This document shows positions 10,272 through 55,582 of a stretch of 64,000 nt of DNA, in pieces; position 1 is the stretch's first letter, and each line of letters opens with the position of its first letter. The position numbers and the translations under genes are program-made. Under the pieces are notes generated by a model. It did no database searches, was not told the origin of the DNA, and saw nothing but the letters and a program-made list of their open reading frames with translations. The stretch is taken from the NCBI GenBank assembly GCA_021513695.1, contig CP084166.1, positions 2,784,001-2,848,000 on the forward strand. The letters are read 5' to 3'. This DNA is from Candidatus Heimdallarchaeum aukensis. GTDB lineage: Archaea > Asgardarchaeota > Heimdallarchaeia > Heimdallarchaeales > Heimdallarchaeaceae.

Positions 10272-10500
10272 TGTAATTAAATTACAATGTTAAGTATAAA
10301 GATGTGTAATACTTAAGAATTATAGTTAACTAAGTTAGGATATTTTCTCAATAACATGGTCTACTTTTTCCTAAATTCCGATTTAGATTAAAAATCGGAA
10401 GAAGTAGTAAGTTTAGTCGGTGGAAAAAAAGAAAGAGAAAGAACAGCGTAAAAGCTGGTCTAACTAACTTAACTTGCTAACTTATTTTCCAACGGACGGG
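10272..10500 (-). ncRNA. candidate TnpB omega-RNA (reRNA) / IS right-end region
   Basis: Non-coding stretch immediately 3' of and overlapping the tnpB end. It contains stem-loops and is placed by analogy with known IS605 omega-RNA loci. Confidence 0.3.
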
Positions 10501-11736: not shown

Positions 11737-12015
11737 TTATTTTTACTTTTTTCCCTATTTAAACTCCTCATCTTCCCTCCTCTCCTCTCTTCTCCTCTCC
11801 TTTATTCTTCTTTTTTCCCCCTCTTCTACAACTTCGTAATTTCGGAAAAAGTAAACCATCAGAACTTCTTTTACGCATTTTTTAGTAATTGTTGAACTTA
11901 AGAGTTTCAAGAACTTTTGTAAAGAGAAATAATTTTGAACATTTATTGTAAAAATACTTTAAATAGTGAATTGACTTCTGTTGTACAGAGAGAATTATAT
12001 AAAGAAGTGAAGAAA

Positions 12016-13113
12016 ATGCCTGAAAAAAAGCAAACAAAGGAAACAAAAAGTGCAAAAACAAAGAAGACATTAACTAAGGAAGACTTGAAAGAACCTCAAG
12101 ATGATAATTGGATAGACGAAATTGTAAGTAAAAAAGAAAAAACTGTTGTTAAAGAAAAAATCAGTGACGCTCCAATAAGATCAATTCCTGGAATTGGTCC
12201 TGCTGTTGCAGAAAAATTGATGTCTGCTGGATATTTAACCCTTACTTCTGTAGCTCATGCTTCTCCTATGGAATTAGTAGAATTTTGCGAAATTGGAGAA
12301 CAAACTGCGAATAAAATTATTTCAGCTGCTAGAGCTCAAGTGGGTATTGGCTTTAAAAAGGCTAGTGAAATCCTAAATCTTCGAGAAAAAGTTTCAAAAA
12401 TCTCAACTGGTAGTAAAGCACTTGATTCTCTATTGATGGGGGGGATAGAAACTAAATCAATTACTGAATTGTCTGGAGAATTTAGAACAGGAAAAAGTCA
12501 AATATGCTTTCAACTTTGTGTAAATACTGCTTTAGATAAAAAGCATGGAGGACTGGAAGCAGGTGTTATTTTCATTGATACTGAAGGAACTTTTAGACCT
12601 GAAAGGATTGTTGATATGTGCGCAAGGTTTGGAAAAGATGTAGATACAGAAGAAGTGCTAAACAGGATTAATGTAGGTAGAGCTTATAATTCTGATCACC
12701 AAATGCTTCTTGTTCTTGAAAGTCCTAAAATTATAACAGAAAACAATGTAAAACTTATTGTAATTGATTCTCTTACCAGCCACTTTAGAGCCGAATATAC
12801 AGGAAAAGGAACTATATTAGAAAGACAACAGAAGTTGAATAAGTTTTTGCATCAACTTCTACGTTTAGCTGATGTATATGATCTGGCTATTGTTGTAACA
12901 AACCAAGTACAAACAAAACCTGATATTTTAATAGGTGAATCAACTACTCCCATCGGAGGAAATATTGTCGCACATTCATGTACGACCAGAATATTTCTTA
13001 GAAAGGGTAAAGGCGATAAGAGAATCGCAAGAGTAATTGATAGTCCAAGTATTCCAGAAACAGAAGCAATTTTCAGAATAACAAAATTAGGAATAGAAGA
13101 TGTAGGAGAGTAG
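12016..13113 (+). CDS. radA: DNA repair and recombination protein RadA
   Basis: HhH region IPGIGPAVAEKLMSAGY, Walker A GEFRTGKSQ, and RecA-fold motifs. The ORF is open from 11935, and the ATG at 12016 was chosen as the start. A K/E-rich ~55-aa extension precedes the HhH region. Confidence 0.85.
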   Translation: MPEKKQTKETKSAKTKKTLTKEDLKEPQDDNWIDEIVSKKEKTVVKEKISDAPIRSIPGIGPAVAEKLMSAGYLTLTSVAHASPMELVEFCEIGEQTANKIISAARAQVGIGFKKASEILNLREKVSKISTGSKALDSLLMGGIETKSITELSGEFRTGKSQICFQLCVNTALDKKHGGLEAGVIFIDTEGTFRPERIVDMCARFGKDVDTEEVLNRINVGRAYNSDHQMLLVLESPKIITENNVKLIVIDSLTSHFRAEYTGKGTILERQQKLNKFLHQLLRLADVYDLAIVVTNQVQTKPDILIGESTTPIGGNIVAHSCTTRIFLRKGKGDKRIARVIDSPSIPETEAIFRITKLGIEDVGE

Positions 13114-14955: not shown

Positions 14956-15642
14956 ATGAGTATTTATATAGTTGAAAAAACAGGGGAACTTTCTACATGT
15001 CATGATAAAGATCGTGCATTAAAATCAGAAAATGTATTAATTGTTGTTTCACACATGGATAAAAAAGTTTACACATGGGTGGGGTCAAGAGCTTCTCCCC
15101 AATCAAAATTCGCTTGTGCAAGAGAAACAGCACGAATGAGGATGGAATTGGGTTATCGTGCAGTGAATCTAGAAGAAGCTGATACAACAGAATCATTCTT
15201 GAGAGCTATAGATGAAGTTCTTAATGGAAGTGATAGTTCAGGAACAAGTTTTAGACCAAGGCCTGCTGCTTATTCTTCTCAAATAAAAGAAAAGAAAAAA
15301 GAGAAAATTCGAGAAAAGCAGAAAGAAGTTATTAAGAAAGAAGAACCTAAAGATATAAAAGCTGCTGTTACACCCTCTGTAAAACTCGATGCTTCTTCTC
15401 CTAAAGTTCTTGATATCAATTACGTAGTAAAGCAAACTTCAACTCTTCCACCTATCAATGGGATGATTAGAGATTATATAATAATAGGCGATAAACTATA
15501 TATTGCTCCTGATGAAGATACTTCTGAGGTAGCAATGATGGATTCTCTTCCAGATGGGGGATTTGTGGCAGAGGATTATTTACCAAGATTATATATAGAA
15601 AATGGACGAGTAATAGCTGTAGAACTATGGAGAGAGCAGTAA
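14956..15642 (+). CDS. gelsolin/cofilin-fold domain protein (Asgard gelsolin-like)
   Basis: The N-terminal ~90 aa (IYIVE...ENVLIVVS...KVYTWVGSRASPQSKFACARETARMRMELGY) match the gelsolin-repeat signature (..Y.W.G..SS..E...AA..A..L). A K/E/P-rich linker and a ~60-aa C-terminal domain follow. Confidence 0.55.
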   Translation: MSIYIVEKTGELSTCHDKDRALKSENVLIVVSHMDKKVYTWVGSRASPQSKFACARETARMRMELGYRAVNLEEADTTESFLRAIDEVLNGSDSSGTSFRPRPAAYSSQIKEKKKEKIREKQKEVIKKEEPKDIKAAVTPSVKLDASSPKVLDINYVVKQTSTLPPINGMIRDYIIIGDKLYIAPDEDTSEVAMMDSLPDGGFVAEDYLPRLYIENGRVIAVELWREQ

Positions 15643-15755: not shown

Positions 15756-16298
15756 TTACTTATTTTCTCCAAGTTTCTTCATTACTAACTTGACTATTGT
15801 GACATAAACATCATTTACTCCTGCTCCTAATTTAGCAGAAGTCTCAAGAACTTGGTAACCTTTACTTTCCCATTCTTTTTTTGCTTGTTCATAAGGTACA
15901 GCTCTTTGTTCTTCTAGATCTGTTTTATTTCCAACAATGATGATTGGTATGTCAGGTACTTTATTTTCTATCTCTGATATCCAATAAGAAATATTTTCAT
16001 ATGATTCTTTTCTAGTAATGTCATAAACCACCACAGCACCATGAGCTCCAGTGTAATACCTTTTCCTTAAGGAAGCTAGACGTTCTTGTCCCACTGTATC
16101 AAATAATACCATTTTTATTTTTGTATCCTCATCAATGTCAACTTCCTTGCTGTAGAAATCCACTCCTAATGTAGGAAGATAATTAACCGAAAATTTGTTC
16201 TTTGTATATCTCACCGCAATACTTGTTTTTCCGACACTATAGTCACCAACATTAATTATCTTAACAATAAAGGTGACATTTTTGTTTGAACCTAACAT
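15756..16298 (-). CDS. Rab-like small GTPase
   Basis: G1 GDYSVGKTS, switch I TLGVDF, G3 DTVGQE, RKRYYTGAHGAVVVYDIT (Rab-like), G4 GNKTDL and G5 ETSAK. Confidence 0.85.
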   Translation of the reverse strand: MLGSNKNVTFIVKIINVGDYSVGKTSIAVRYTKNKFSVNYLPTLGVDFYSKEVDIDEDTKIKMVLFDTVGQERLASLRKRYYTGAHGAVVVYDITRKESYENISYWISEIENKVPDIPIIIVGNKTDLEEQRAVPYEQAKKEWESKGYQVLETSAKLGAGVNDVYVTIVKLVMKKLGENK

Positions 16299-16320
16299 TT
16301 ACAGTACAACTCTATAATTA

Positions 16321-16395
16321 TTTTATACTTTATAGTTATTTTATATACTTTATAGTTATTTTATATACTTTATAGTTATTTTATATATTTATGTT
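16321..16395. repeat. 20-bp AT-rich tandem repeat (~3.5 copies; unit tatatactttatagttattt)
   Basis: Direct repeats visible at 16321-16340, 16341-16360 and 16361-16380, with a degenerate fourth copy. Confidence 0.85.
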
Positions 16396-16482: not shown

Positions 16483-17373
16483 TTGTTATGTGAGGATAAA
16501 AGCATGTCTTCAAAAGTAATAGAATCAATAGCTTATAGCTATGTAGGAAGATTAATTGAACCCTATCTAACAGAATTTGAAGGTTTAAGGACCACACTAA
16601 AAAAAGCCGGAATAGAGCAAAGTGTTAGGATGTATTTAAGCATTAGACTATTCTGGTCCATAGTTTTATCAATAGTTTCACTTTTTGTTCTAATTGCAGT
16701 AAAAATACTAGTACCAAGTTTTTCAGTCATACTGGTTGTCATATTACCTGTGCTAATTTTGTTGACAATGTTTGTAATAACATGGGTATACCCAAGTTAT
16801 CTGATAGGTGAAAGAAAAAGAAAACTAGAAGCAGCTTTACCCACTGCAGCAAGCTATATGACTGCCATGGCTTCTGCAGGAGTTACACCAGATAAAATTT
16901 TCCTTGCTTTATCTAAAGAAGAAAGCATTGGTGAAGCTATTGTTAAAGATGCTAAAAAAATCTCTCGTGATATTCAAGTTTTTGGTTATGATATTGTTCA
17001 TGCTTTAAGCGAAGCATCATCACGTTCTCCTTCTCCTAAGTATTCAAGTTATTTAGAGGGGATTGTTGCGACTTTTACCTCTGGAGGAGAACTTCAGCGA
17101 TTTTTAGAAGTTTCTACTGAAAACTTGATGAGAGATAAAGTTCAAACTGAAAAGAATTTTATTGAAGCGTTAGGTTTAACTGCAGAGTTGTACATGGTTG
17201 TAGGAGTTGTAACTCCTATTTTCTTTATCGTTATAATTGCAATGATGGCCATGTTGGGTGGTAGTGCAAATACTGGGGCTAATGCTCTTCTAGCAATTAC
17301 AGTTTACATAGTCATACCTGTTGGAATGCTGGTAATTATTCTTTTAGTGGACATGCAACAACCGGAGGATTAA
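16483..17373 (+). CDS. type II secretion system F-domain membrane protein (TadB/EpdJ-like)
   Basis: TM helices flank a cytoplasmic GspF-like domain (PTAASYMTAMASAGVTP...). It is paired with a second T2SF gene. Confidence 0.65.
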   Translation: MLCEDKSMSSKVIESIAYSYVGRLIEPYLTEFEGLRTTLKKAGIEQSVRMYLSIRLFWSIVLSIVSLFVLIAVKILVPSFSVILVVILPVLILLTMFVITWVYPSYLIGERKRKLEAALPTAASYMTAMASAGVTPDKIFLALSKEESIGEAIVKDAKKISRDIQVFGYDIVHALSEASSRSPSPKYSSYLEGIVATFTSGGELQRFLEVSTENLMRDKVQTEKNFIEALGLTAELYMVVGVVTPIFFIVIIAMMAMLGGSANTGANALLAITVYIVIPVGMLVIILLVDMQQPED

Positions 17374-17383
17374 GGTGAGTTAA

Positions 17384-18286
17384 ATGGCAATTAAAGATGA
17401 AGTTGAGATAAAAACGAAAGAGTTTCAGATTAGTGTTGATATAATCTATTGGGTTATAGCAGTTTTTGCGGGATTGGTTATAGTTGTATTAGGTGTTTTA
17501 GATTATATTTCTTCTACTGATTTGATAACCATATTAGATATAAATGACTTTATTATATTAGCCATAATTATATCAATGGGTATTCCAACCTTTTTAATAG
17601 TTTACAGAGAAGAACGTAGACAAGCTCGTATTGATGAGAATTTACCATATCTCCTCCGTGAAATCTCAAATGCACAACGAACAGGTATGAGTCTCCCTCG
17701 AGCAATAAAAGAAGCAGCGAAGAGACACTATGGTCCTTTAACTCCCGAATTACGTAAAATGTCAAGTAAAATTTCTTGGGGTATTCCTTTTAGTAAAGCT
17801 ATGTCTGATTTTCAAAGTGCAATAAATACACAGATGGCTCAGAGAGCTACCATTCTAATTTTAGAGGCTGAACGTTCTGGAGGAAATCTAGAGGATATTT
17901 TTGAATCAACAGAGAAACATGTTCAACAGTTACTTGATCTCAAAAAAGAACGAGAAGGAGCAATGCGACCCTACTTGATGATTTGTTATGCTGCATACAT
18001 CATTTTTGTCTTAGTGGTCTTCATATTATTCCAAACATTCTTTTATCCTTTTGGTACATTGGATGTTTCTAGTGAGATGTTTAGTTTTAGTATAGATTTA
18101 GATACACTTTCTGTTCTGTTCCTTCATATGCTAGCTGTCCAAGGCTTCTTCACTGGTCTTGTTGCTGGAAAAATGGCAAAAACAAAAGTTAAAGCAGGAT
18201 TAATGCATTCTGTGATACTAATGTTTATTGGTTGGTTTGCATTTAAAGTTCTCATTCAAAATCAACTTATCACACTAAATTTGTAA
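17384..18286 (+). CDS. type II secretion system F-domain membrane protein (TadC/EpdK-like)
   Basis: GspF-like domain (LLREISNAQRTGMSLPRAIKEA). It has its own RBS (aaggtgag) 11 nt after the previous stop. Confidence 0.65.
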   Translation: MAIKDEVEIKTKEFQISVDIIYWVIAVFAGLVIVVLGVLDYISSTDLITILDINDFIILAIIISMGIPTFLIVYREERRQARIDENLPYLLREISNAQRTGMSLPRAIKEAAKRHYGPLTPELRKMSSKISWGIPFSKAMSDFQSAINTQMAQRATILILEAERSGGNLEDIFESTEKHVQQLLDLKKEREGAMRPYLMICYAAYIIFVLVVFILFQTFFYPFGTLDVSSEMFSFSIDLDTLSVLFLHMLAVQGFFTGLVAGKMAKTKVKAGLMHSVILMFIGWFAFKVLIQNQLITLNL

Positions 18287-18295
18287 GGTGATTGT

Positions 18296-18727
18296 ATGGT
18301 AAAAATCGAAACTGAAATAAAAAATATCAAAGCAGATATTGAGGAACTAAAACGAACTTTAAACCAAATGAACTTTAATTTGGTTAGAATAATGGGCACA
18401 ATAGAAAAAGGAATTGCCAGTGTTTCTACTACAGAAGATGGAGAAAAAGTGGTAACTTCTGGAGTTTCTGTTGATTTGGGACCAATTGAAGATAAAATAG
18501 AAAAACTGGAAAAAGAAATGGTTACCAAAAAAGAGCTGAGTAAGCTCGAAGCACGAGTCTCTGAAATAGTTTCTGAAAAAATTAAAAGAGCTGAAGAAAC
18601 ACAAGATAGAGCTCAAAATCTGCTTGAAAAAGGAATGGAATTGGTGGAATTACAGTCAACTCTGGCAGAAATAAAAACACTATTGGAAGAAAGAATTCTC
18701 GGAGATTTGGAAGAAGAAACAGAGTAA
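18296..18727 (+). CDS. coiled-coil protein (pilus-locus accessory)
   Basis: 143 aa, entirely heptad-like E/K/L-rich sequence. Confidence 0.45.
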   Translation: MVKIETEIKNIKADIEELKRTLNQMNFNLVRIMGTIEKGIASVSTTEDGEKVVTSGVSVDLGPIEDKIEKLEKEMVTKKELSKLEARVSEIVSEKIKRAEETQDRAQNLLEKGMELVELQSTLAEIKTLLEERILGDLEEETE

Positions 18728-18736
18728 ATCAAATAG

Positions 18737-19888
18737 GTGATTAATCCCGTGATTCTAAAAAAACTAAGAAGAATGAGAAAAGGACAAGTTAGGGGGATAG
18801 ATTTTGCTTTAGGCATGCTTATTTTTATTATTGCTTTTAGTCAAGTAATAATAGTTCTTACTCATCTTCTTGTACCTTCAATAATGCAAATGGAGAATTA
18901 TTCAGAATACCAAGAGTTGGATAAATTATATGGGTTAATATATTATTCAAAAGGAAATCCTTCTAATTGGGCAACAATAGGAACTTCTTCGTTAACAGAT
19001 TTTTCTTTAGGATTAAGTGGTGATGATGGACAATTATCTTTTTCTAAAATAAATAGGTTAACATCAGATATTGCTGATTATTGGAAAATTGATTATCAAT
19101 TTGTAAAAACATCTTATGGACTTTTGAAAGATTTCGCTATCTCTGTAGATTCAGTTATAAAGATCCAACTAGATAGTTTTTCTGCAGGTTTTGGCTCTCT
19201 CACTGTAAAAGGAAAAGTTTTGGAGGATACAGTATCGATTGAAAATGTTGCAATCACTACTTTTGCTTTGGATAAAGAAAATAACTTGTTTATTAATACT
19301 ACAACAACAAAGAAAAATACAAATGAAGCTACTTTTATCTCAACCCTTTCAGTATCTACTTCAAATTATTATACTATTGTAATTTTTGCTAATATTGATG
19401 AAATTTATGAAACATATTATGTGTTTAGAATCTACAAACCTAATGATAGTTTTGAATATGAGAAAGTAGATTTTAACTTTCGACCATTAGTTTTAGAGAA
19501 CAAAGAAAAACATTCATCAGCAATCGATGTTCGCTTTTCTAGTCCAGCTATAACAGAAGAAGCAGTAGCTACTGTTCTATTTTCAAAAAGAGATGTAGGA
19601 AAAAGTTTCTATAATCAGACCTTATCTCAAGAATCTTCTTTAGAAGAAGGAAATTTTTATTTAGGAACAAACATTCCTATCCCCACTCAAGGATTGGCAG
19701 TAGTTGTTGTACAAGAAAATGATGGGTTAAATTACAGAGCAGGGTACATGGGTATCCCCATGTTTTTGACAGAGACTGCTTCAAGCATTTTTGGAAATGA
19801 AGAAATTCTTTCAGGTGAATACATTTATTCATTTGATCTGCTTTATGTCAGAAACAGATTAGTTAAATGTCAAATTTGGGTGAATTAG
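18737..19888 (+). CDS. pilin-like protein with class III (type IV prepilin-like) signal peptide
   Basis: The N-terminus KKLRRMRKGQVRG-IDFALGMLIFIIAF consists of a basic region plus a hydrophobic helix. Confidence 0.5.
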   Translation: MINPVILKKLRRMRKGQVRGIDFALGMLIFIIAFSQVIIVLTHLLVPSIMQMENYSEYQELDKLYGLIYYSKGNPSNWATIGTSSLTDFSLGLSGDDGQLSFSKINRLTSDIADYWKIDYQFVKTSYGLLKDFAISVDSVIKIQLDSFSAGFGSLTVKGKVLEDTVSIENVAITTFALDKENNLFINTTTTKKNTNEATFISTLSVSTSNYYTIVIFANIDEIYETYYVFRIYKPNDSFEYEKVDFNFRPLVLENKEKHSSAIDVRFSSPAITEEAVATVLFSKRDVGKSFYNQTLSQESSLEEGNFYLGTNIPIPTQGLAVVVVQENDGLNYRAGYMGIPMFLTETASSIFGNEEILSGEYIYSFDLLYVRNRLVKCQIWVN

Positions 19889-20356
19889 ATGAGAAAATTG
19901 TTAAAATCAAAAAAAGCACAACTGTTTGTTATTGAAGCTTTCATTGCTGTTTCTGTAATGTTAATAATGGTCATCGCAATTTACGAGGTACAATTGGCTA
20001 CTGTCCCTCCAAAAGAGCAAGGATATACTGAACTAACCTATAACATACTAGAGTCTCTAGATCAGAGTGGAATACTTGAAGAGTATGTAATTGCTCTTAA
20101 GTCTGAAAATCCTGATACAATAGGAAATGTTCAAGAAAAAATAAGTTTGGCAGTTTACTCATCAATTCCCGAAAATGCTGATTTTTATTTCTACTGCAAG
20201 AATTTGACAACAAATGAAATAGTTACTTCGAGTATAATTAATATTCTAGATACCGATCAAGTAAATGTTTTCACTTCAGAATATTTAATTACAGAAGTTA
20301 ATGGAGAGTTTGATCCATATAGTTTCTATTTAGCTGTTTGGATAGTAGGTGTCTAA
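19889..20356 (+). CDS. pilin-like protein with class III signal peptide
   Basis: N-terminus RKLLKSKKAQ-LFVIEAFIAVSVMLIMVIAI. Confidence 0.5.
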   Translation: MRKLLKSKKAQLFVIEAFIAVSVMLIMVIAIYEVQLATVPPKEQGYTELTYNILESLDQSGILEEYVIALKSENPDTIGNVQEKISLAVYSSIPENADFYFYCKNLTTNEIVTSSIINILDTDQVNVFTSEYLITEVNGEFDPYSFYLAVWIVGV

Positions 20357-21038
20357 TATGAATAAAAGAAAATTCTTTCAAAATAAAAAAGGAGAAGTAT
20401 TTATTTTACTTGCTCTAGTTATTCTACTCTATCTAATGTTATTGTCTACAACAATTTATAATGTTACCCAGATTCCTTATGTGGATCCTGCTCCCGAACA
20501 AGACCAAACAAACAATTATATCGAAAATGCTATTTCTGCACTATATGATCTCGTAGATGTTGCTTTAAATGAATATTCACATGGAATTGAAGAAACAACT
20601 GTTCGAGCTAACTTTGTTGAAAATGTAAAAACAATCGAAAATTATCTCGATGAACACAATCTTTTATCTACTTTTACAGTGAATGAAACAAGTTTTAGTA
20701 TTACAAACTCTTCAAAGAGTGAGAATCCTGTTTACATATCGTTTGAATGTTCCATTTCTATCTCGATTATTTCTATTAACCAGAGATTTGAAGCAAATTT
20801 AGAAATTAAAGTGAGTTATTACTTGGAAATATCTGAAATATTAGGTACTGAAAACTACATTTATTGCTACTCAATAAAACAAGGAATAGAGTTTCCATTA
20901 AGTGATTGTCAGGTAACTATCTCTCCAACCACAACAGTAACAAATATCGGGGATGGTAGTTACATGGCTGATTTACAAACAGGACAGTTAATAAAAGTGG
21001 TCTTTAACAATAACATTCTTTTGTGGAAGGAGATTTAA
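20349..21038 (+). CDS. pilin-like protein with class III signal peptide
   Basis: N-terminus KRKFFQNKKGE-VFILLALVILLYLMLL. Confidence 0.45.
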   Translation: MSNMNKRKFFQNKKGEVFILLALVILLYLMLLSTTIYNVTQIPYVDPAPEQDQTNNYIENAISALYDLVDVALNEYSHGIEETTVRANFVENVKTIENYLDEHNLLSTFTVNETSFSITNSSKSENPVYISFECSISISIISINQRFEANLEIKVSYYLEISEILGTENYIYCYSIKQGIEFPLSDCQVTISPTTTVTNIGDGSYMADLQTGQLIKVVFNNNILLWKEI

Positions 21039-21077
21039 AAATAGAAAAATGATTAAAAAAGCTTCTATTTATTTTAA

Positions 21078-21707
21078 CTATTGAATGTCAATAGACACTC
21101 CTTCATCCTTTTCTTCTTCCTTACGTTGAATAACAACTTCTAATACACCATTGTTGTATTTTGCTTTAGCAGTCTCAATTTTTACTGGAACAGGTAATTC
21201 TATTTTCTTTTCGTATTTTCTATCTTTTGAATGTGCCTTTATACTTAACCTTGATTCAGAACCTGTGAGTTTTATGTCTCCTTTACTAATTCCTGGGACT
21301 TCAGCGATCACTCTAACTTTATCTTTCTCTTTAAAAATATCAATAAGTGGTTCTCTAACATCATATGTTTCTACATGCCCTGTTCCTCTAGGCTTTACAT
21401 TTCCAAATTGTCTAAAACTAGGTTTTCCATCAGGGTCAAAGCCAATCTGAAAACCATAAACAAATTGATTTCTTAACAAATCTTCTAAACTTGTATCAGC
21501 ATCTAGATTCTCTCTTAAGTTTTTCATTAACTCTTTGATCATATTATCTATCATTCTTCCAAAACTTGAACCCTTCATAAATGGCATAAACTGTTCCATA
21601 AACTCATCTATGTCAAATCCATCGAACGAAAAGTCATCAATTTTAAAAGGAAATGGAAAGTCATCATCATCTGGTTTTTTACCTTTTTTCTTTTTATCAT
21701 TTGGCAT
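21078..21707 (-). CDS. Hsp20/alpha-crystallin family small heat shock protein
   Basis: Alpha-crystallin domain (VREPLIDIFKEKDKVRVIAEVPGISKGDIKL...ELPVPV...AKYNNGVLEVVI) with an acidic, F-rich N-terminus. Confidence 0.8.
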   Translation of the reverse strand: MPNDKKKKGKKPDDDDFPFPFKIDDFSFDGFDIDEFMEQFMPFMKGSSFGRMIDNMIKELMKNLRENLDADTSLEDLLRNQFVYGFQIGFDPDGKPSFRQFGNVKPRGTGHVETYDVREPLIDIFKEKDKVRVIAEVPGISKGDIKLTGSESRLSIKAHSKDRKYEKKIELPVPVKIETAKAKYNNGVLEVVIQRKEEEKDEGVSIDIQ

Positions 21708-21796
21708 TCTATCACCAATCAGACTTATATTTATTCACAAATATAAACTTAACAATATAAACAAAATAAGAGAAAGGAAAATGGAGAATTAATTTA

Positions 21797-23326
21797 TCAT
21801 CTCAAAGCCTTCTTCGCTTTTTCCAATGTTCTATCAGGGTCAGAATTATACTCTTGAATAATAGAAGCAACATCTTCAAAGTAACGGATTCTCTTTTTTA
21901 CCATCCAGCGTAGAACTGTTTTTCTCCTTTCAAGTTCATCATGGATATCTTGCTCTGTTATTCCAGTATTTTCCATTATTTTTTCTAAGACATAACTTCT
22001 ACCAAAGTAAATAAATGAATCTTCTCTTGGATTCCACTGAAATACTTTGTTTGTGAGAATTTCTTCAGTAACTGGATCTAACCCTATTAATTCTGTAATA
22101 GTTAGTGTTCTTCTTGCAAATTTTCCTTGATGGCGTACTTTTCTAACTACATGGATAATATCTAAACTCTTCATCATGCTTCTTGGAATATTCATTGGTT
22201 TACTCTCAAGCCTGTGGATAACACCTTCAACTGAGTCACCATGAATGGTACCTAGCCCTCTATGCCCAGTACTCATAGCTTGGAACATTGCATAAGCTTC
22301 CTCACCTCTAATTTCTCCTACAATAATATAGTCTGGTCTTTGTCTCATAGCTGCTCGAAGTAACTCGTACATAGAAATTTGTCCTCGTCTATATCCTGTT
22401 TCTGTTGCTTCTCCAAAACCAGAGCGAACAACGCTTGGAATCCAGTTCTCATGTGCTAAATTTAGTTCTGCTGTATCTTCAATTGTAACGATTTTCATAT
22501 CGGGTTTAATCATCATACTTAGGGTATTAAGTAAAGTAGTCTTTCCTGCAGCCGTACCTCCTGCCACGAGAATAGATACATTGTGCTCCATTATGAACCA
22601 ATAATAAGCTGCAATCTCGATGTCAATAGTATTATAAAGAATTAAATCTGTAATTGTGAAGGGATCAGCCTTAAATTTACGAATAGTAAAGGTTGAACCT
22701 CTTTGAGTTACTTCTCTTCCATAAGTTAGTTGCACTCTGCTACCATCTTCTAAACTTGCATCCAATAAAGGATTAGCAATACTTACATGTCTTCCTGCTC
22801 TCTGAGCTAATTTAATAATAAAGCTGTTCAATTCGTCCTCTGTATCAAAAGATACATTAGTTGCAATAGATTCATATTTTCTGTGCCAAACATAAATAGG
22901 AATACCTACACCATCACATGATATATCTTCAATATTAGGGTCAAGCATAAGTGGTTGTATCTTCCCAAAGCCAATGAGATCTCTTGTCAAATAATACATT
23001 ATTTTCTCGAACTGATTTTCATTAAGTTTTATACGATATCGTTTAATGACATCAACTATTTTCTTTTTTAGATATTCTTCTGCTTTAGTAAAATCTTTGA
23101 GAACACTAAAATCAACATCTAATTCTTCAATGAGAATCTCTAAAATCTTGTTGTAAATAGCTTTTTCCTTGCTGTCTAGTGGGATTTCCACAACCATATA
23201 TTGGGTTCTTTGTGTAACAGGATTCGTTTGAATTAATACATAACTAAAGGGAGGACTAACAGGATAGGTTTCTTCTAAAAGAGGAACTGAACTGTCCATT
23301 GACATTGTACCGAAATTTTCATCCAT
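21797..23326 (-). CDS. type IV pilus/archaellum assembly ATPase (FlaI/ArlI/TadA-like secretion NTPase)
   Basis: Walker A VAGGTAAGKTTLLNTL and Walker B/His box (IIVGEIRGEEA). Its 509 aa carry an N-terminal domain as in FlaI. Confidence 0.8.
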   Translation of the reverse strand: MDENFGTMSMDSSVPLLEETYPVSPPFSYVLIQTNPVTQRTQYMVVEIPLDSKEKAIYNKILEILIEELDVDFSVLKDFTKAEEYLKKKIVDVIKRYRIKLNENQFEKIMYYLTRDLIGFGKIQPLMLDPNIEDISCDGVGIPIYVWHRKYESIATNVSFDTEDELNSFIIKLAQRAGRHVSIANPLLDASLEDGSRVQLTYGREVTQRGSTFTIRKFKADPFTITDLILYNTIDIEIAAYYWFIMEHNVSILVAGGTAAGKTTLLNTLSMMIKPDMKIVTIEDTAELNLAHENWIPSVVRSGFGEATETGYRRGQISMYELLRAAMRQRPDYIIVGEIRGEEAYAMFQAMSTGHRGLGTIHGDSVEGVIHRLESKPMNIPRSMMKSLDIIHVVRKVRHQGKFARRTLTITELIGLDPVTEEILTNKVFQWNPREDSFIYFGRSYVLEKIMENTGITEQDIHDELERRKTVLRWMVKKRIRYFEDVASIIQEYNSDPDRTLEKAKKALR

Positions 23327-23585
23327 TTTATCTCTATATCGTTAAAGCATTCATTACTTATAATTTTTTTGAATTTATCTAAAGAAAAAGGCAAAACGTG
23401 AAAAAAGCTTGTAAAAGAATTTACAAAGACTAATGACAATTTGACGAGAATAAAAAGTGAAAAACAGAAATTTATTTGATTTGCAAAACTTTTTCATGTT
23501 AAAAAGATAAAAAGAATTAAAGTTAATTGGTAATTGTTAGTTAATTTATAGTAACTGTTAATCTGTTAATTGCTATGATTCTTTA

Positions 23586-24182
23586 TTAGATGTATCTAGG
23601 AGATAACATTCCTATAATAATAAGGAACATTTTCTTGAAAAAGTTTAGAGGTTTAATAGAATCAAATATCTCTTTCAATGATCTTGATGTATCTCCAGTA
23701 AAAACTCTAAAAGCACATGCTTTATCATATTTACAATTCACACAATTTTTCCTGAACTTTTCTCCTTCTTCTAAAAGCCCATTTTCAGCAATTATGTTTT
23801 GAAATTCATTAAATGCCGATATGTCTCCATTGAATAAATCTATTTTTTCTCCGAAATTGTCATCAAAGAGTTCAGCCATCAATCTTAATCTGTTAGTATA
23901 TTCGTCGACATTAACTGGGGGTTTCAAAGCAAATATTGCATTGATTCTTTCAGTTTGATAGCTGAGAACTATTGATTTTTCCATTTCGAATAAATGAAAT
24001 TCATAGGATTGAGCTCCATCATAAATAATTTTTGCACTAAATAAAGCAGATTTTAATAAGGATTCATCGTCTATAGTCGCTTCTTTAGATAAATCAACAC
24101 AATGAACACCTATATGACACATTAAAGATCTTGCAAAGAGTGGTATTCCTGCTTGATTTGAAATAATTAAATTTTGTATCAT
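23586..24182 (-). CDS. hypothetical protein, possibly Roadblock/LC7-like N-domain plus a Cys cluster
   Basis: LIISNQAGIPLFARS resembles a roadblock core. A C-terminal CVNCKYDKAC cluster is present. The call is weak. Confidence 0.3.
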   Translation of the reverse strand: MIQNLIISNQAGIPLFARSLMCHIGVHCVDLSKEATIDDESLLKSALFSAKIIYDGAQSYEFHLFEMEKSIVLSYQTERINAIFALKPPVNVDEYTNRLRLMAELFDDNFGEKIDLFNGDISAFNEFQNIIAENGLLEEGEKFRKNCVNCKYDKACAFRVFTGDTSRSLKEIFDSIKPLNFFKKMFLIIIGMLSPRYI

Positions 24183-24296
24183 TGTTAATTATAATAAAAA
24201 ATGAACATTTAAATACTTTTCATAGAACTAATTTTGTCTTTTTGTATTCCTAAACGATGAAAAATGTAAGAATTGAATAATCAAATTTATGAAAAA

Positions 24297-24773
24297 TCAA
24301 ACTCCACTTGAAAAAGTAATTCTTTTGTTTGTTCCATCATAAAGATAAGCTATAATCGGATTCTTTTGAGAGCTCACTATTTCTCCAGAAAATGTTACTT
24401 CAGATTTTTCAAGATATAGTGTTACCGTTGCTGAAACATCCTCATTTTCTACTAAATATGCGTACATGAGGTACTCTGTTGCACTATCTGGTAGTAAATA
24501 AGTTATTACATACTCTTCTTCTTGAATTTTATCAGGTAAAGATAATGATAGTTGTATTGTAAAATCTGTTGCTCCTTGTTGAATTTTTTTGTCTCCAAAC
24601 TGTTTCAAGTCTAGAATTGAGTTAGCGACTTTTTGCAGTATTTGTTCTAAACTTGATTCTATTGCTCTATTTTCCAAAGAATTGTTTAAGCTGACCATAG
24701 TTGCTGATATTCCTGCAATAGCTAATGAACCAATCATAATAATGGATAAATACATAACATACTCGCTTGGCAA
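24297..24773 (-). CDS. N-terminally anchored pilus/archaellum accessory protein (FlaF/FlaG-like architecture)
   Basis: Single N-terminal TM segment (YLSIIMIGSLAIAGISATM) followed by a ~130-aa soluble domain. The call rests on position within the pilus locus. Confidence 0.35.
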   Translation of the reverse strand: MPSEYVMYLSIIMIGSLAIAGISATMVSLNNSLENRAIESSLEQILQKVANSILDLKQFGDKKIQQGATDFTIQLSLSLPDKIQEEEYVITYLLPDSATEYLMYAYLVENEDVSATVTLYLEKSEVTFSGEIVSSQKNPIIAYLYDGTNKRITFSSGV

Positions 24774-24782
24774 ACCTTTTTC

Positions 24783-25640
24783 TCACCCTATAATATTTAT
24801 ATTGATGTTTATCTTAATAATGTTAACGTAAAGATAATGAAAACTGTAATTTTCATTTACTGGAACATATACAGGCTGTTCTTCTTCCAAGGTATGGTGT
24901 TCTCCATAAACATTAGCTTTTCCTATTAAATCCGAATTAAAAGCAATTGGTTCCAGAGATGTTTTCTCTGTTCCACTAAATTCAATTTCTAAGGATATAG
25001 ATTTTGTTGTATTTTCGACTCCAAACTCGCTGTTAGTGCTAATTGAGACATGAATAATATCAATAGTAAAAATTTCTGTTGTCCCTTCTGTCTTATAATC
25101 AATATCGATGCTGTATCTATAGTATAAAGACATATACAAATAAGCAGGATCAAATATTGTTCTGGTCTCATTTATCACTGTAATGTCATTATATAATTTG
25201 GTACTACCATTAATAAATAAATAATCTTGGTCTTCAGGGCCTTTAAGATATCTGTGTTCTCCTTCTTCGAAATCTTCAACATTTGTACTTTTATGTACTA
25301 ATCTAGTCAAGTTTTCTGCTAGAATTGATTTGCTAAAAGAACTTGCTGTATCATATAAGGTGAAATAAACTACTTTACTATTATCGAAGTATAAAGAACC
25401 ATCTTCTTGGTAATAATCAAAAGAAATAGCCTGAGGTGGAGGATTTACAAGTAAGTTCTGAATGTTTGAGTCTAGTGCACTAAAATATAAACGAACAGAA
25501 TTATTGTAACTATTATCTTTAAACTGTATAATGCTAGGAAACATATAAACTAAAGATATGCCTATAGCTGCTAATATAAGCGTAAACATAAGTATTGTTG
25601 CTACTATTGGAGATACTCCCTTCTTTCTATTCAGTTTCAT
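24783..25640 (-). CDS. pilin/archaellin-like protein with class III signal peptide
   Basis: N-terminus KLNRKKG-VSPIVATILMFTLILAAIGISL, a typical archaeal prepilin signal. Confidence 0.55.
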   Translation of the reverse strand: MKLNRKKGVSPIVATILMFTLILAAIGISLVYMFPSIIQFKDNSYNNSVRLYFSALDSNIQNLLVNPPPQAISFDYYQEDGSLYFDNSKVVYFTLYDTASSFSKSILAENLTRLVHKSTNVEDFEEGEHRYLKGPEDQDYLFINGSTKLYNDITVINETRTIFDPAYLYMSLYYRYSIDIDYKTEGTTEIFTIDIIHVSISTNSEFGVENTTKSISLEIEFSGTEKTSLEPIAFNSDLIGKANVYGEHHTLEEEQPVYVPVNENYSFHYLYVNIIKINININIIG

Positions 25641-26097: not shown

Positions 26098-29000
26098 TTG
26101 GCAGATCTAAAACTATCAGAAAATGCATTAACAGTACTACAAAAAAGGTACTTACTAAAAAATGAGAAAAACGAAGCAATTGAAACTCCAGAACAGATGT
26201 TTGAAAGAGTGGCAAAAAGTATAGCTTCAAGTGAAGAAGAAAAAAAAGAATTTTATGAATTGATGACTTCTTTAAGATTTCTACCTAACAGCCCTACTCT
26301 TATGAACGCAGGAACGAAGCTAGGTCAACTATCAGCTTGTTTCACTGGAGAGCAAGTAATAATCACAGCTGAAGGAAATAAGCAAATAAAAGATATTCAA
26401 ATTGGAGATTTAGTCCTGACAGCTTCAGGTAATTTTAGAAAGGTTACCCAAACTATGCAAAGAAAAGTTGACAAAAGATACATTATTGATGTTTTGAAAC
26501 TACCTAACTCTACTCTTTCTGTAACAGAAGATCACCCTATTCTTACCTACAAAAATGGAAAAATTAAATGGAGTTTAGTAAAAGAATTAAGTAAAAACGA
26601 TTTTGTAGCTTTATCATACCCAAAGGAAATTGAAGATATTTCTTCAATTAATGTTATAGATTACTTATCTGATAGAGATTATAAAGTAAAGGATGGTATG
26701 ATATTAAATAAAAATACAAAAGTTGGAATAGAATCAGATGAAATAAGTGATCAAGAAATTCCAATAAGAAATAAAATAGAAGTAGATGGAGAGTTTCTTA
26801 GATTTTTAGGTTATTATGCTAGTGTGGGAGAACTAGATAAAAAAATAGTAAGATTTGCTTTTTCAGATAAAGAGATGGATTATGTTGAAGAAGTAATATC
26901 AATTGCAAAAAGTAAATTTGAATTAGATGCAAGAATAGAAAACTCTGATGGAAATATAGTGATTGTGCAATTTTATTCATCCATACTATCTGAATTCGTT
27001 AAGAAAGTCATAGGAGAAGGAAACAACAAAAGAGTTCCCATATGGATATTGAAATTACCTCCAGAAAAACAAGAAAACTTTGTTTTAGGGTGTTTTAGAG
27101 GAGATAACTCTTTATTTTCTAGTAGTTATATGCTTGATGCTCGTTTATCTGCGTGTAATGATAATTTAGTATATTCAATATGGATCATGTTAATGAGAAT
27201 GGGGATAGTTCCCAATCTTGATAAATCCCCTATTCCAAAAGGTGAAACCACCTATTCTTATTCTTGTTATATTGGAGAAACAGAAAAGAGCGATTCCTTT
27301 GTAGAGATTCATGGAAAAGACGGTAAAGGAATTTCTCAATTATCTTTACAAAAATTAAATCATATAATTGTCAATGATACTGTTTTTCTCCCTATACGAA
27401 GTATCGAATGTATCGAAGAACCTGTGACTGTTTATAATCTAGAAGTAGAGGAGGAACATACATATGTTGCAAATTTTGTTTCAGTTCACAATTGTTTTGT
27501 ACTTCCAATAGATGATTCTCTTCCCTCCATTTTTGATGCAGTGAAAAAAGCGGCATTAATACACCAAAGTGGAGGAGGATGCGTTGCTGAAGGAACAGTA
27601 ATACCTACAGAAGAATTCGGTTTTATACCCATTGAAAAGATACCTGGATTTGAAAACATTCCTTCTGACGAACAAGGACATGATTGTGAACCTTTCACTG
27701 TTTATTCATTTGATGAGGACAAAGAATCTTTCACAAAAGGAACAGTAACAAAACTTTGGAAATTCAAGAAAAATAAATATTTGAGCATTAAATTCGGAAC
27801 AGAAGGAGTAATAGAAGTCACACACTGGCATCCTTTCATAGTTTATGTCCCTTCTGAAGAGAAAAAGAAAGGAGGATATTATACAGAAAAAAGAGCAGAT
27901 GAATTGAAAGTTGGAGATCTGTTGGTTAGTCCCTCTACCCATAAGATAACTGAAACTTCTAGTATTTCCGATGTACACAAGGTTAAAGTAGAAGAAATAA
28001 AAGAAATAGAAGAAGAAAAAGTATTTTATGACTTTACAGTACTTAAATATAATAACTATCTAGCAGGTTCTAAACAATTTACAGTTATCCATAATACAGG
28101 TTTTAGCTTTAGTAATATTAGACCAAAAAATGATGTAGTCAAAACTACTGGGGGGGTAGCTTGTTTTCCTGAAGATGTAAGGATTTATACTAACAAGGGA
28201 TTATTAACAATCAAAGATATAATCCAATCTGATCAACCAATTAAAGCTTTGACTCATGATGGATTCCACGAAATAATAAATAAATACGATAACGGAGATG
28301 CTGAAGTTTACAGACTTATTACATCTAATGGATATTCAGTTAAGGCAACCTCTACTCATAAATTTTTAACAATAGAAAATAATGAGTTGGTACTAAAGCC
28401 TCTTAATAAACTTCAAGAAGGAGATTATGTTCTTCTTTTTTCTACTTTTGAATCTGTTGATGAAAAAGAACCATTTAAGCTATCTCCTATTACTGACGAT
28501 GGTCAAACTTTTGATGAAATTTATCTTGATGAAGATCTTGCCTATTTCATAGGATTAACTTATGCAGATGGACATATTATTGATGATGGAAGACATTATA
28601 GCGTAAGAATCACTTTAAACAAGAACCAAATACGTATAATCGAAAAAATAAAGAAAATAGTTCAAACTAAGTTTGACTATGATTTGAAAGTCTATGAGCG
28701 TAAAAATGTAAATAAAGTTGAACTTGTTCTACACGGAAAAAGATTTGTAAAATTGTTAAAAGAAAATAATTTACTTAAAGAAAAATGTGAAAATATTCGT
28801 ATTCCAGAATTATTATTTCAAAGCCCAAGAAATGTCCTAAGCTCATTTATTGCAGGATACTTCGATGGTGATGGTCATGTAAGTAAAAGCGGGCGAATTA
28901 GCATTAAAACAATATCCAAACAAATGAGTGAAGATTTTTCATTATTGATAACGCGGTTAGGTGTACTATCTACAACTCATATTAGTCCCCCTATTTATGG

Positions 29001-32000
29001 AATAAGAAGAAATAAAAAAAGTTACAGAGTTTCAATCCCAACAGCTCTCTTCAAGAAAAGATTTGTAGAACAGCTTTCAAAATACTCAATAAAACTAGAA
29101 AATTATACATTGAAAGAAGGATCTACAAATAAACTTTTTTCTTATCCGTTTAACATCTTAACTCATGTTGGGAATCCTTCCAAGAGGGCAGATATTGCTA
29201 AAACAGTAATACCTTATAACAGAAAGAATACCTATCGTAAAGCTATTCTACGGATTCTTCAAAATTCTAATAAATATGGACTTACACCCGAAGAAATTGC
29301 TTTCTTAAAGAAACTAGAAAATCTTTACCCTGTAAAGATAAAGTCTATTAAAAAAGAAGGAATTGAACGTGTTTATAATCTCGAAGTTAAGAATATCCAT
29401 CGACTTGTGGCTAATGGTTTTTATGTTTCAAATTCAGGCCCCATAAGCTTTATGGAAGTCTTTAATGCTGCAACAAATACTATCAAACAAGGGGGATGTA
29501 TTGCTGCTGAGAGTTTAGTAAGAACTACAAATGGTGTTCTTCCTGCTGGTGATTTACTTAATTGTCCTCCTCTTGGCGAAAACAACACTCAAGAATTAAT
29601 CTATGATGGAGAGTCGTATAACAATGCTTTTCTGTCTCTGGATAACGGTTTTGCGGATGTATTAATTCTTGAAACTGAGCTGGGTTTGACTTTAAAAGCT
29701 ACATATAATCATTTAATTGCTACAGTAGATGAAGACGGGAATATAGTATGGACTGAGGTTGAGAAGATTAAGAAGGGCGATTGGGTTGTAATTGTATTAG
29801 GGGGTCACGTTGGACAAAAAATCTTCCTCCCAAAAATAGAAAATCAACATCATAATGCTAATCCCATTAAAATCCCTGAACAATTTAATGCTGAGCTTGC
29901 CGAAATCTTAGGTTTGTATATGGCTGATGGATGTATTAGTACTGGTGGTCGAATCATCTTTAGTGTCGATAATAAGGATTTAGATCTCATTAAAAGAATC
30001 GAATCTTTAATGAAAAAAGTATTTAATTTAAAACTTGGAAGAATAGAGGATAAACAAACTTACTCGGATGTTATTTTCTATTCTCGTGATCTATGCGACT
30101 ATTTCAGTAAAATGAATTGGAAAAAAGAGTCATCATCAGAAGCTTTTATCCCTCAAGAGATTTTTATTTCTGAACCAGAAATAGCAAAAGCATTCGTCCG
30201 AGGGTTGTTTGAAGGTGATGGTAATGTTCGTTCTGAAGGATATCCAAGGCTTTATTCAACATCTAAAACATTAATTGAACAGACACAACAACTTCTTTTA
30301 GGCCTTAACATTGTTTCTTCTGTAATAAAGGAAGAAGATAGAAGTAATAGTTTAGGTGATTTACCTCTATATGAATTATCAATAATTCCAGAAAGAAGTA
30401 TTATAAAATTCAAAGAAGAAATTGGTTTTATATCAAACAGAAAAAAACAGTTGCTGGAATCTAGGTTTACGGGCAAAAAGTTCGAACAATCAGATATTAT
30501 TCCTAATCAAGGCAAAAAACTGAAAGAGCTATATAGTTATGTTGGTGCAGGGACCAGTAAAGGGAGAAATAAAAAAGGAGCAAACAGAGAATTTTATAGA
30601 GCAATATACCATTATATAAGCGAGAATCCATCTTCTAAAAGAAATTTGACAAGAAAAAGGTTAAATTATTTGATGAAAAATTTCGAACAAGTTAAGAATT
30701 CCAAGCATTTCCAACAGATGTCTGATCCAAAATACTATTTTACAAAGGTTATAGATGTTAAAGAAAATCGAACTTATACAATGGACTTCGAGGTGCCAGA
30801 ATCAAGCAAATTCGTAGCAAATGGTTTCTTAGTACATAATCGTCGTCGTGGGGCTAACATGGGTATCCTTCGTGTTGACCATCCTGATATCATGTCTTGG
30901 ATTACTTGTAAAGAAGACCAGACCAAATTTACTAATTTTAACATTTCTGTTGCAGTTACCTCTGAGTTTATGCAAGCAGTGGAAGAAAACAGAGACTATG
31001 ATCTTATCAATCCTCGCACAAAGAAAGTTGTAGGTAAACTCAATGCTGCTGAAGTTTTTAACAAAATTGTTGAGATGGCTTGGAAAAATGGCGAGCCGGG
31101 TATAGTTTTTATTGACCGTATGAACGAATTCAATCCTACCCCTGAAGTAGGAGATATTGAAAGCACTAATCCTTGTGTAGTGGGTGATTCATTAATATCT
31201 ACAGAATTTGGATTAATGAAAATGCGTGATTTAGTCTCCAAGTTTCCTGAAGGCTCAGTAAAAATAACTACTGATAACCGTGTTCCTCAACAAATATTAA
31301 CATCTGGAAACCAAGTGCAGTTGTTGGATACAAAAACTCAAGGGGTATCATTGAATACTATTACACGTGCTTTCTCTACTGGAATAAAAGATGTATACAA
31401 ACTAACTACAGTGTCAGGTTACGAGTTGAAAGCTACTGGAGACCATAAAGTACTAACCAATGAAGGCTGGGTACAAGTAAAAGACTTAGATGTTAAAAAA
31501 CATAGAGTAAAGATACAATCAGGAGAAGGAGTTTTTAACAGTGTAAAAGAGTTACCCATCAAAGTCGAAAATGAAATAACTGGTGAGAACGGAAGAAAAT
31601 ATAGTTTTAATTTACCAAAAACATGGTCGAAAGAGTTAGGTCATGTACTAGGTTGGCTAGTAGGAGATGGCTGGATAAGGACAGGAGATAAGAATAGAAG
31701 AGTAGGATTTACTTTTTCAAAGAAAGATGAAGAAGTGTTAAAGTATCTCAAGGATGTATTAAATAAATGGTACAACAAACAAATTAATGAAATAAAAAGA
31801 GAAACAAATGTTTATCATTTAAGTTACCATTCAAAATATTTTGTTGATTTCTTCATAAATTTGGGAGTTAAACCAGAAAAATCAGCAAAAAAGGTTGTAC
31901 CTGAGTCAATGTTTCTAGCTACTAAAGAAGCAGTAATTGCTTTCCTACAAGCACTTTTCTCTGCAGATGGAACAATACGTTACTCAAAGAAATCTTCAAG

Positions 32001-55543: not shown

Positions 55544-55582
55544 TGCAAAGTCTTTTCAGAATCAAATTAAATATTCTTAAAT

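Follow-up and report, generated by a model that had tools for sequence, protein, structure and literature searches.

Which filament machine does an Asgard archaeon build from a pilus-type ATPase, two separate platform genes and several pilin-like proteins: a rotating archaellum, a thin adhesive fibre of the Tad type, a short pseudopilus or a pilus of another kind? This question is raised by a locus at positions 16483 to 25640 of a 64,000-nt stretch of DNA from Candidatus Heimdallarchaeum aukensis. The stretch, called the window here, has a G+C content of about 31% and bears Asgard hallmarks in the form of two Ras-family GTPases, RING-finger proteins and a weak gelsolin-like match. Among known organisms, Asgard archaea are the nearest relatives of eukaryotes, and they live in physical association with partner microbes; given this kinship and this lifestyle, their surface organelles are of real interest. 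Our analysis indicates that the locus is likely to encode a non-motility type IV pilus machine of the kind known as Clade 2, later named the 'Halo pilus' group or system 2.

Eleven open reading frames (ORFs) had been listed for the locus in a sequence-only reading, and all are present at the same coordinates. On the + strand the genes stand close together, 9-10 nt apart except for one abutting pair and one 8-nt overlap, and encode the platform proteins TadC1 and TadC2, the accessory protein CC143 and the pilin-like proteins P383, P155 and P229. The convergent - strand carries, in order, a 285-aa pilin (P285), a 158-aa protein anchored by a transmembrane (TM) segment (P158), a 198-aa ORF (P198), a 509-aa T2SSE ATPase and an Hsp20. 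When all ORFs of the window were scanned for a class III signal-peptide motif, [KR][GA] followed by 20 hydrophobic residues, the only full-length ORFs to match were four proteins of this locus; three further matches in the window were internal or C-terminal fragments or a 69-aa ORF. The gene set is also syntenic in more than 15 other genomes. Because the motif is confined to the locus among full-length window ORFs, and because synteny extends to so many genomes, we regard these features as real and beyond chance. The argument below draws on gene identities, synteny, signal-peptide motifs, the non-FlaI status of the ATPase and correspondence to a haloarchaeal pilin set, all of which were established in the analysis.

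The ATPase, the split platform and their synteny

The ATPase (21797..23326, - strand) is a PilB-type secretion/assembly enzyme (T2SSE, E 1.6e-39); its sequence and alignments show Walker A (GGTAAGKTT), the Asp box, Walker B and the His box. Its best match in the Protein Data Bank (PDB) is AfGspE (2OAP), at 439 bits, E 1.5e-130 and about 43% identity, over an alignment that is full-length and includes the C-terminal helical region; the corresponding values are 299 bits for S. acidocaldarius FlaI and 168 bits for the Tad ATPase CpaF. AfGspE belongs to Clade 2, as a member of arCOG01817 (Makarova et al. 2016). Against the NCBI equivalog model for FlaI (NF058587, cut-off 550 bits), the S. acidocaldarius FlaI fragment scored 643, AfGspE 430.5 and the window ATPase 430.4, with the Asgard, Bathyarchaeia and haloarchaeal homologues at 395-451. 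On the NCBIfam BasE model, too, AfGspE scores the same as the window ATPase. A small neighbour-joining (NJ) tree, in which CpaF serves as outgroup, places the Asgard and Bathyarchaeia ATPases as the sister group of AfGspE and haloarchaeal PilB and leaves FlaI outside. An ATPase within the FlaI clade and a FlaH gene close by were what the sequence-only reading had named as telling against its pilus; FlaI instead falls outside, and no FlaH was found in the scanned ORFs of the window.

The window enzyme is 98% identical to the ATPase of Candidatus H. endolithica PR6, and the Asgard and Bathyarchaeia ATPases form a clade of their own, 54-70% identical to the window protein. The Asgard ATPase clade is marked by an insertion of 5-8 residues after the GFG motif (residues ~306-313), with the consensus G-x-E-x-x-G-[KR]-[KR]-R-G, which is shorter in Bathyarchaeia and absent from AfGspE, FlaI and CpaF. 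PilB3_C is weak in the window ATPase (18.8 bits against a cut-off of 27), and many orthologues carry it as a precomputed match. One homologue, P0023 (695 aa, 63% identical), has a JAB/MPN domain (PF01398) fused to the T2SSE ATPase.

The membrane platform is encoded by TadC1 (16504..17373, + strand; Pfam T2SSF E 7e-10) and TadC2 (17384..18286, + strand; 300 aa; Pfam T2SSF E 9e-20), which begins 10 nt 3' of TadC1. The mechanical ORF of TadC1 opens at TTG 16483 (296 aa), and its start is probably ATG 16504 (MSSKV..., 289 aa). Two adjacent one-domain T2SSF genes thus stand in place of a single FlaJ, as the sequence-only reading had seen. TadC1 aligns with positions 9-244 of the 555 in the ArlJ model and with residues 22-324 of a 679-aa haloarchaeal TadC encoded by a single gene, and TadC2 aligns with positions 266-541 and residues 422-677, respectively. 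The UpsF model is likewise matched by complementary halves, the N-terminal by TadC1 and the C-terminal by TadC2. Because the two proteins match complementary halves of ArlJ, UpsF and the haloarchaeal TadC, their alignments identify them as the N- and C-terminal halves of one FlaJ/PilC-type platform split between two genes, and not as two full paralogues.

The split occurs in all orthologous loci examined (Heimdall, Borr, Odin, Hod and Bathyarchaeia), with TadC1 identities of 73-78% within Heimdallarchaeaceae and 31-48% for the other Asgard lineages and Bathyarchaeia. A fused TadC of 607 aa in locus L004 proved to be apparent only, produced by a stretch of masked bases (N) in that contig. The constancy of the split in an Asgard/Bathyarchaeia clade nearest Clade 2 suggests either an independent fission or a wider distribution, and splitting of the platform gene extends beyond the Epd/Tad lineage.

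In Heimdallarchaeaceae with 85% ATPase identity, the full arrangement is kept, Hsp20 included. In more distant Heimdall metagenome-assembled genomes (MAGs), as in Borr-, Odin- and Hod-archaea, a single strand carries ATPase-TadC1-TadC2-CC-P383-P155-P229, a module conserved in Heimdall-, Hod-, Odin-, Borr- and Kari-archaea. The genes for P285-like and P158-like proteins are upstream of the ATPase gene in the distant Heimdall MAGs; in Borrarchaeum, P285-like (DUF7289-like) genes are at the downstream end of the operon; and the seven-gene core of Odin and Hod is without a P285-type pilin. The Bathyarchaeia locus has nothing in common with these beyond the ATPase and the two platform genes, and has a small pilin after TadC2. 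Directly upstream of the ATPase, Borrarchaeum encodes a prepilin peptidase of family A24 (272 aa, with A24 and Arc_PepC_II matches), which by these matches would be PibD/FlaK-like, not EppA-like. We take the ancestral state to be one operon, (P285-P158)-ATPase-TadC1-TadC2-CC-P383-P155-P229. Since these genes share a single strand in other Asgard lineages, the block from TadC to P229 has been inverted in Heimdallarchaeaceae, leaving two convergent units with Hsp20 at their junction.

The pilin-like proteins and their haloarchaeal counterparts

The pilin-like proteins were compared with an operon on a plasmid of Halobaculum halophilum (NZ_CP058531.1, locus L019), which encodes a Pilin_N protein, a hypothetical protein, PilB (PilB3_N/C), the 679-aa TadC and a run of five proteins, DUF7287-DUF7288-DUF7261-DUF7266-DUF7289. 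The ATPase of this operon resembles the HVO_1160/PilB4 type, described as Clade 2 (Makarova et al. 2016); PilB3 is Clade 2 too. When the Asgard families were aligned by hhalign with seven haloarchaeal proteins, each pilin-like family paired best with its expected positional counterpart.

P285 (24783..25640, - strand) is a canonical archaeal prepilin, DUF7289-like, whose N-terminus in the window reads RKKG/VSPIVATILM, where the slash marks the predicted cleavage point; the orthologue alignment gives the family motif [KR][GA]/[VIAL]SP[VI]. It matches the TIGR02537 N-terminal domain weakly (18.3 bits against a cut-off of 20), while hhalign links it to haloarchaeal DUF7289 (P 2e-6) and to Pilin_N (3.5e-6), and members of the P285 family match DUF7289. 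With 6 N-glycosylation sequons it has the highest density in the locus. Its AlphaFold2 (AF2) model, a helix and a beta domain, is of low confidence (predicted local distance difference test, pLDDT, 59) and too poor for use. We consider P285 a candidate for the major subunit.

P383 (18737..19888, + strand) is a large DUF7287-like protein with a class III signal peptide. In orthologues the motif is [KR][GA]/Q[IV]RG[IV]DFA, of which Q[IV]RG[IV]DFA is invariant. The match of the window protein to DUF7287 is weak; among distant family members 6/49 match, at best with E 6.5e-6. In the AF2 model, of mean pLDDT 67, a long N-terminal helix spans residues 4-67 and two beta-sandwich domains lie within 133-340, values for the globular part being roughly 85-95; by Foldseek these domains resemble tandem fibronectin type III (FN3) or immunoglobulin (Ig) domains. 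We propose that P383, with its two Ig/FN3-like domains, may be a minor pilin or tip adhesin. Its profile finds only 75 clusters among 1.84 billion representatives, and those with names come from Heimdall-, Hod-, Odin- and Kari-archaea, with one from Hydrothermarchaeales. P383 is 100% identical to a protein of Candidatus H. aukensis that GenBank labels hypothetical (K9W45_12435), and the public records retrieved for homologues of P383 and P285 read the same. Large pilins of this sort, which the sequence-only reading had thought unusual, turn out to have precedents: Ig-like pilins of 250-550 aa (arCOG02911) have been described as typical of Clade 2 loci (Makarova et al. 2016).

P155 (19889..20356, + strand) and P229 (20349..21038, + strand, with the 8-nt overlap between them) complete the set of three + strand proteins with class III signal peptides. 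This part of the sequence-only reading stands, in that each has the motif followed by a hydrophobic stretch and the feature is conserved in orthologues. The small P155 begins KKA/QLFVIE, followed by a TM segment (family motif K[GA]/Q[LI][FH]). Its best hhalign partner among the seven haloarchaeal proteins is DUF7288, and its Borrarchaeum orthologue scores 34 bits on DUF7288, above the cut-off of 27. P229 begins KKG/EVFILL, again before a TM segment, with RKG/QVFLLL in orthologues and the family motif [KR]G/[QE][VI]F; it is DUF7261-like, proteins at its position matching DUF7261 weakly (E 7e-4 in Odin, 0.04 in Borr). Both are proposed to be minor pilins.

P158 (24297..24773, - strand) is pilin-like and DUF7266-like but leaderless: it opens with an invariant M-PSEY[IV][IM]Y and continues into a TM helix. 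This start is backed by upstream stop codons; ten other loci use ATG as the codon, and the window and L001 use TTG. On DUF7266 the protein scores 27.1 bits (cut-off 27.6), and DUF7266 is also its best hhalign partner. The M-PSEY start, found in orthologues L001-L015 as well, recalls the mature end of a processed pilin or the Flp 'EY' motif.

A proposed pilus machine and its rivals

We propose that a hexamer of the PilB-type ATPase docks on a platform made of TadC1 as the N half and TadC2 as the C half. A PibD-type peptidase encoded elsewhere in the genome would cut P285, P383, P155 and P229 after [KR][GA], and ATP hydrolysis would then drive extraction of the subunits from the membrane and their polymerisation via their hydrophobic N-terminal helices. 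P383, P155 and P229, together with the leaderless P158, probably make up a minor-pilin priming or tip complex, in which the Ig-like domains of P383 may be pictured as the adhesin. The shaft would consist of P285 or of a small PilA-type pilin encoded elsewhere, and CC143 would be a cytoplasmic accessory protein. By analogy with the pili of Haloferax, Halobacterium and Methanococcus, adhesion may be taken as the default function. Processing, filament assembly, the identity of the major subunit and the adhesive role are inferred, the mechanism being drawn from what is established for type IV filaments.

Several points weigh against a Clade 2 pilus in this organism. The Heimdallarchaeum pilus is predicted from genes, and the ATPase NJ tree has few references and no bootstrap, and is without Clade 1 (EpdL) or Clade 4 (AapE, UpsE). 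Most single matches of pilins to DUF families are below the Pfam cut-offs, so that the case lies in their joint consistency with gene order, and the membrane orientation of the leaderless P158 is uncertain. Neither a prepilin peptidase nor a small PilA-type pilin was found in the 64-kb window, and a tblastn search of the window with the Borrarchaeum prepilin peptidase gave no match. In a 2026 preprint, system 2 platforms are given as single genes, and Aap-like systems are reported in Heimdallarchaeota and Bathyarchaeota; these Aap-like systems may be loci of the present kind.

Three other machines deserve to be weighed against this pilus. Were the locus an archaellum, it would encode a rotary swimming organelle with FlaI as its ATPase, in keeping with the automatic annotation of the Joint Genome Institute (JGI), which names many homologues 'flagellar protein FlaI', and with the FlaI model being the best NCBIfam match of the window ATPase. 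That match fails the model's cut-off, however, with a score shared by the non-archaellar AfGspE and well under that of a true FlaI fragment. No FlaH, FlaF/G, FlaC/D/E, archaellin or Peptidase_A24 domain was found in the scanned ORFs of the window (the Pfam scan took in all but a few ORFs at 44.7-52 kb). The sole stand-alone KaiC-like protein (54776-55543) lies 29 kb off and was rejected as FlaH, at 55 bits on ArlH against a cut-off of 215. A further KaiC-type match, at 11935-13113, is Rad51/RadA and not FlaH. The platform is split, and the orthologous loci of six lineages are likewise without archaellum genes. Because the ATPase fails the FlaI cut-off and no FlaH, FlaF/G or archaellin was seen in the scanned ORFs, we reject an archaellum as extremely improbable; on this the sequence-only reading, which had favoured a type IV pilus-type locus, was right. 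Its affinity to Epd/Tad has fared less well. A Clade 1 pilus of that type would owe its two platform genes to the EpdJ/K-TadB/C fission and would assemble short Flp-like pilins into a thin adhesive fibre. A platform of two contiguous one-domain genes is indeed a hallmark of the Epd-like and Tad clade (Denise et al.), but split platforms occur in Clade 2 too, where many loci have two tadC-like genes (Makarova et al. 2016). The TadC2 profile prefers bacterial TadB (30 bits) to TadC (15 bits), although the mapping of TadC1 to either is not significant. Three of the signal peptides have Q at +1, a residue typical of EppA substrates at that position; the Borrarchaeum peptidase, however, reads as PibD/FlaK-like. 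The ATPase is far closer to the Clade 2 AfGspE than to CpaF, in a comparison that included no EpdL sequence, and the pilin set is that of haloarchaea, where it is found with a PilB bearing PilB3_N and PilB3_C. With no short Flp/Epd-type class III pilin in the window and no TadZ/FlaH-like ATPase adjoining the locus, an Epd/Tad pilus is distinctly unlikely.

The third alternative keeps the machine and changes its product: the five pilin-like proteins could act as the pseudopilins of a type II secretion system (T2SS) do, in a short pseudopilus or bindosome-like structure that pushes or anchors other proteins of the surface. The locus offers five pilin-like proteins and no small major pilin, by analogy with GspG-K, and the Odin and Hod core does without a P285-type pilin altogether. 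Many archaeal machines in the superfamily of type IV filaments (TFF) are, furthermore, argued to be functionalised by substrate-binding proteins with class III signal peptides (2026 preprint). No such class III substrate-binding protein is present in the window, however, and the bindosome models fall far short, BasE at 232 against a cut-off of 1000 and BasF at 30 against 1300. The P285 gene comes first in the proposed ancestral operon and its product begins like a canonical pilin, and the related haloarchaeal machines form true pili. We therefore consider a pseudopilus unlikely and return to a Clade 2 pilus as the reading that we favour.

What does such a pilus add to the picture of Asgard cells? 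For Asgard TFF loci, a 2026 census preprint gives core machinery only, with pilins undetected beside it. The Heimdallarchaeum locus and its Asgard orthologues carry a complete conserved pilin set, homologous to that of haloarchaeal pilus operons. The novelty is modest, consisting in an Asgard-wide seven-gene module with pilins that the census missed, in a machine of an already known type, and it leaves the present understanding of how such machines work unchanged. What the locus does supply is named candidate subunits for the filaments seen on cultured Asgard cells. Hodarchaeales encode this seven-gene module, and cultured ones bear unexplained helical filaments on their protrusions; these are 15-25 nm thick, have a round tip and are found where the cells meet partner methanogens. 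One may speculate that this module builds the thick filaments, that large Ig-domain subunits explain their thickness and tip, and that they serve as an attachment organelle for Asgard syntrophy, although we think a link of this kind unlikely.

Surrounding elements and comparison with known systems

Not everything in the locus need belong to the pilus. CC143 (18296..18727, + strand) is soluble, charged and helical; its 143 aa include 27 E, 16 K and 16 L and contain no TM segment, and its Pfam matches are only weak ones of the coiled-coil type. It keeps its position in the Heimdall, Borr, Odin and Hod loci, where NLLEKGLxLVEL is the conserved motif, and among the loci examined it is seen only in Asgard, the Bathyarchaeia having their small pilin at this place. 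Hsp20 (21078..21707, - strand; Pfam HSP20 E 2e-10), a small heat-shock protein, is found at this spot only in Heimdallarchaeaceae loci and is absent from the colinear loci L014-L018 and L022; at an inversion junction, it is probably a passenger and not a pilus component.

The orphan ORF P198 (23586..24182, - strand), between the ATPase and pilin genes, is shared by the window and H. endolithica (L001) and missing from every other locus; because its occurrence is limited to H. aukensis and H. endolithica, it is a lineage-specific insertion and not a conserved part of the system. The sequence-only reading had described two small N-anchored proteins on this strand, which is correct for P158 with its N-terminal TM segment and not for P198, whose 198 aa have none by hydropathy. 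Searches of Pfam, NCBIfam and the PDB with P198 gave no match even at E 10. The protein has 5 Cys, including those in CVNCKYDKAC, and the N-terminus MIQNLIISNQAGIPLFARSL, which may bear a likeness to longin, roadblock or sigma-adaptin starts. Many type IV pilus loci include roadblock/LC7 proteins (Makarova et al.).

A 20-bp tandem repeat with 4.3 copies (16309..16392, no strand) lies between the Ras-family GTPase gene and TadC1. Its unit is ACTTTATAGTTATTTTATAT (Tandem Repeats Finder score 133, 92% matches), and its TTTATA motifs are TATA-box-like, the divergent intergenic region being the presumed promoter of the + strand operon. As H. endolithica has about one copy of the unit, the repeat is a strain-specific expansion in this presumed promoter. 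A scan for bacterial-type promoters and terminators gave counts equal to the shuffled expectation and is uninformative for an archaeon.

The Ras-family small GTPase gene itself (15756-16298, - strand; E 3.6e-51) adjoins TadC1, and beside it, near TadC1, is a protein with a weak gelsolin match (14956-15642, + strand). Heimdallarchaeaceae loci L002-L011 retain these neighbours, locally rearranged, and more distant lineages do not; a regulatory link in the manner of MglA-type control of polarity is conceivable. Farther off in the window are an IS605 OrfB/TnpB-type transposase gene (10477-11355, - strand), with OrfB_IS605 and Cas12f1-like TNB domains, and a 2561-aa ORF (26098-33783, + strand) which, read from its translation alone, looks like a ribonucleotide reductase broken by several inteins. 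A 1063-aa product (36485-39676, + strand) matches nothing in Pfam; it has a signal-like hydrophobic segment at its N-terminus and a TM anchor at its C-terminus and is possibly an S-layer or surface protein. At 54776-57427 (- strand), a single-domain KaiC-family ATPase (255 aa, not ArlH) is encoded beside a 614-aa protein with an N-terminal PIN domain. On the Odinarchaeota contig L018 (802-2137), the pilus operon is closely preceded by a gene of cyclase type (weak Guanylate_cyc match) and by a PycTM gene, a pair which we take to resemble the Pycsar anti-phage system.

Set beside the archaellum, the locus has a homologous ATPase and platform and class III signal peptides on its subunits, and differs in failing the FlaI cut-off, in having no FlaH, FlaF/G or archaellins, and in its split platform. 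With the Epd pilus of Methanococcus maripaludis (EpdJ/K/L, Clade 1) and with the bacterial Tad pilus (TadA/B/C) it shares two contiguous one-domain platform genes beside the ATPase and a presumed adhesive, non-swimming role. It differs from them in having another pilin set, with no short Flp-type pilin, no TadZ/FlaH-like partner ATPase and no EppA-type peptidase seen, and in an ATPase far from CpaF/TadA (168 bits). AfGspE (AF0659, PDB 2OAP; Archaeoglobus fulgidus) remains the best solved homologue of the enzyme and differs from it by the absent insertion after GFG.

The closest parallel as a whole system is the haloarchaeal operon. In each, the ATPase belongs to the PilB family and resembles PilB3_C in its C-terminal part, the platform comprises two T2SSF domains, and five pilin-like proteins correspond one-to-one, DUF7287, DUF7288 and DUF7261 keeping their relative order. 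One gene (679 aa) encodes the platform in haloarchaea and two genes encode it in Asgard, and the haloarchaeal ATPase, at 989 aa, has extra N- and C-terminal domains, in contrast to the 'standard' 509-aa Asgard form. The haloarchaeal DUF7287 protein has 186 aa, and P383 is about twice that length with two Ig-like domains added. CC143 is present in the Asgard loci and not in the haloarchaeal operon; the haloarchaeal DUF7266 protein has a charged N-terminal extension, whereas the Asgard P158 has lost its leader peptide; and the window homologues of DUF7289 and DUF7266 are upstream of the ATPase, unlike in the haloarchaeal operon. In Clade 2, ATPase/TadC modules combine with differing pilin sets (Makarova et al. 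2016). In Natrinema, where the main pilins are PilA1-4, pilB2-pilC2 adjoins pilA6-10, and deletion of pilA6-10 lowered the plaquing of a pilus-dependent virus about 100-fold. With pilA6-10 as putative counterparts of the DUF728x families, this result would fit a minor-pilin role for sets of this kind.

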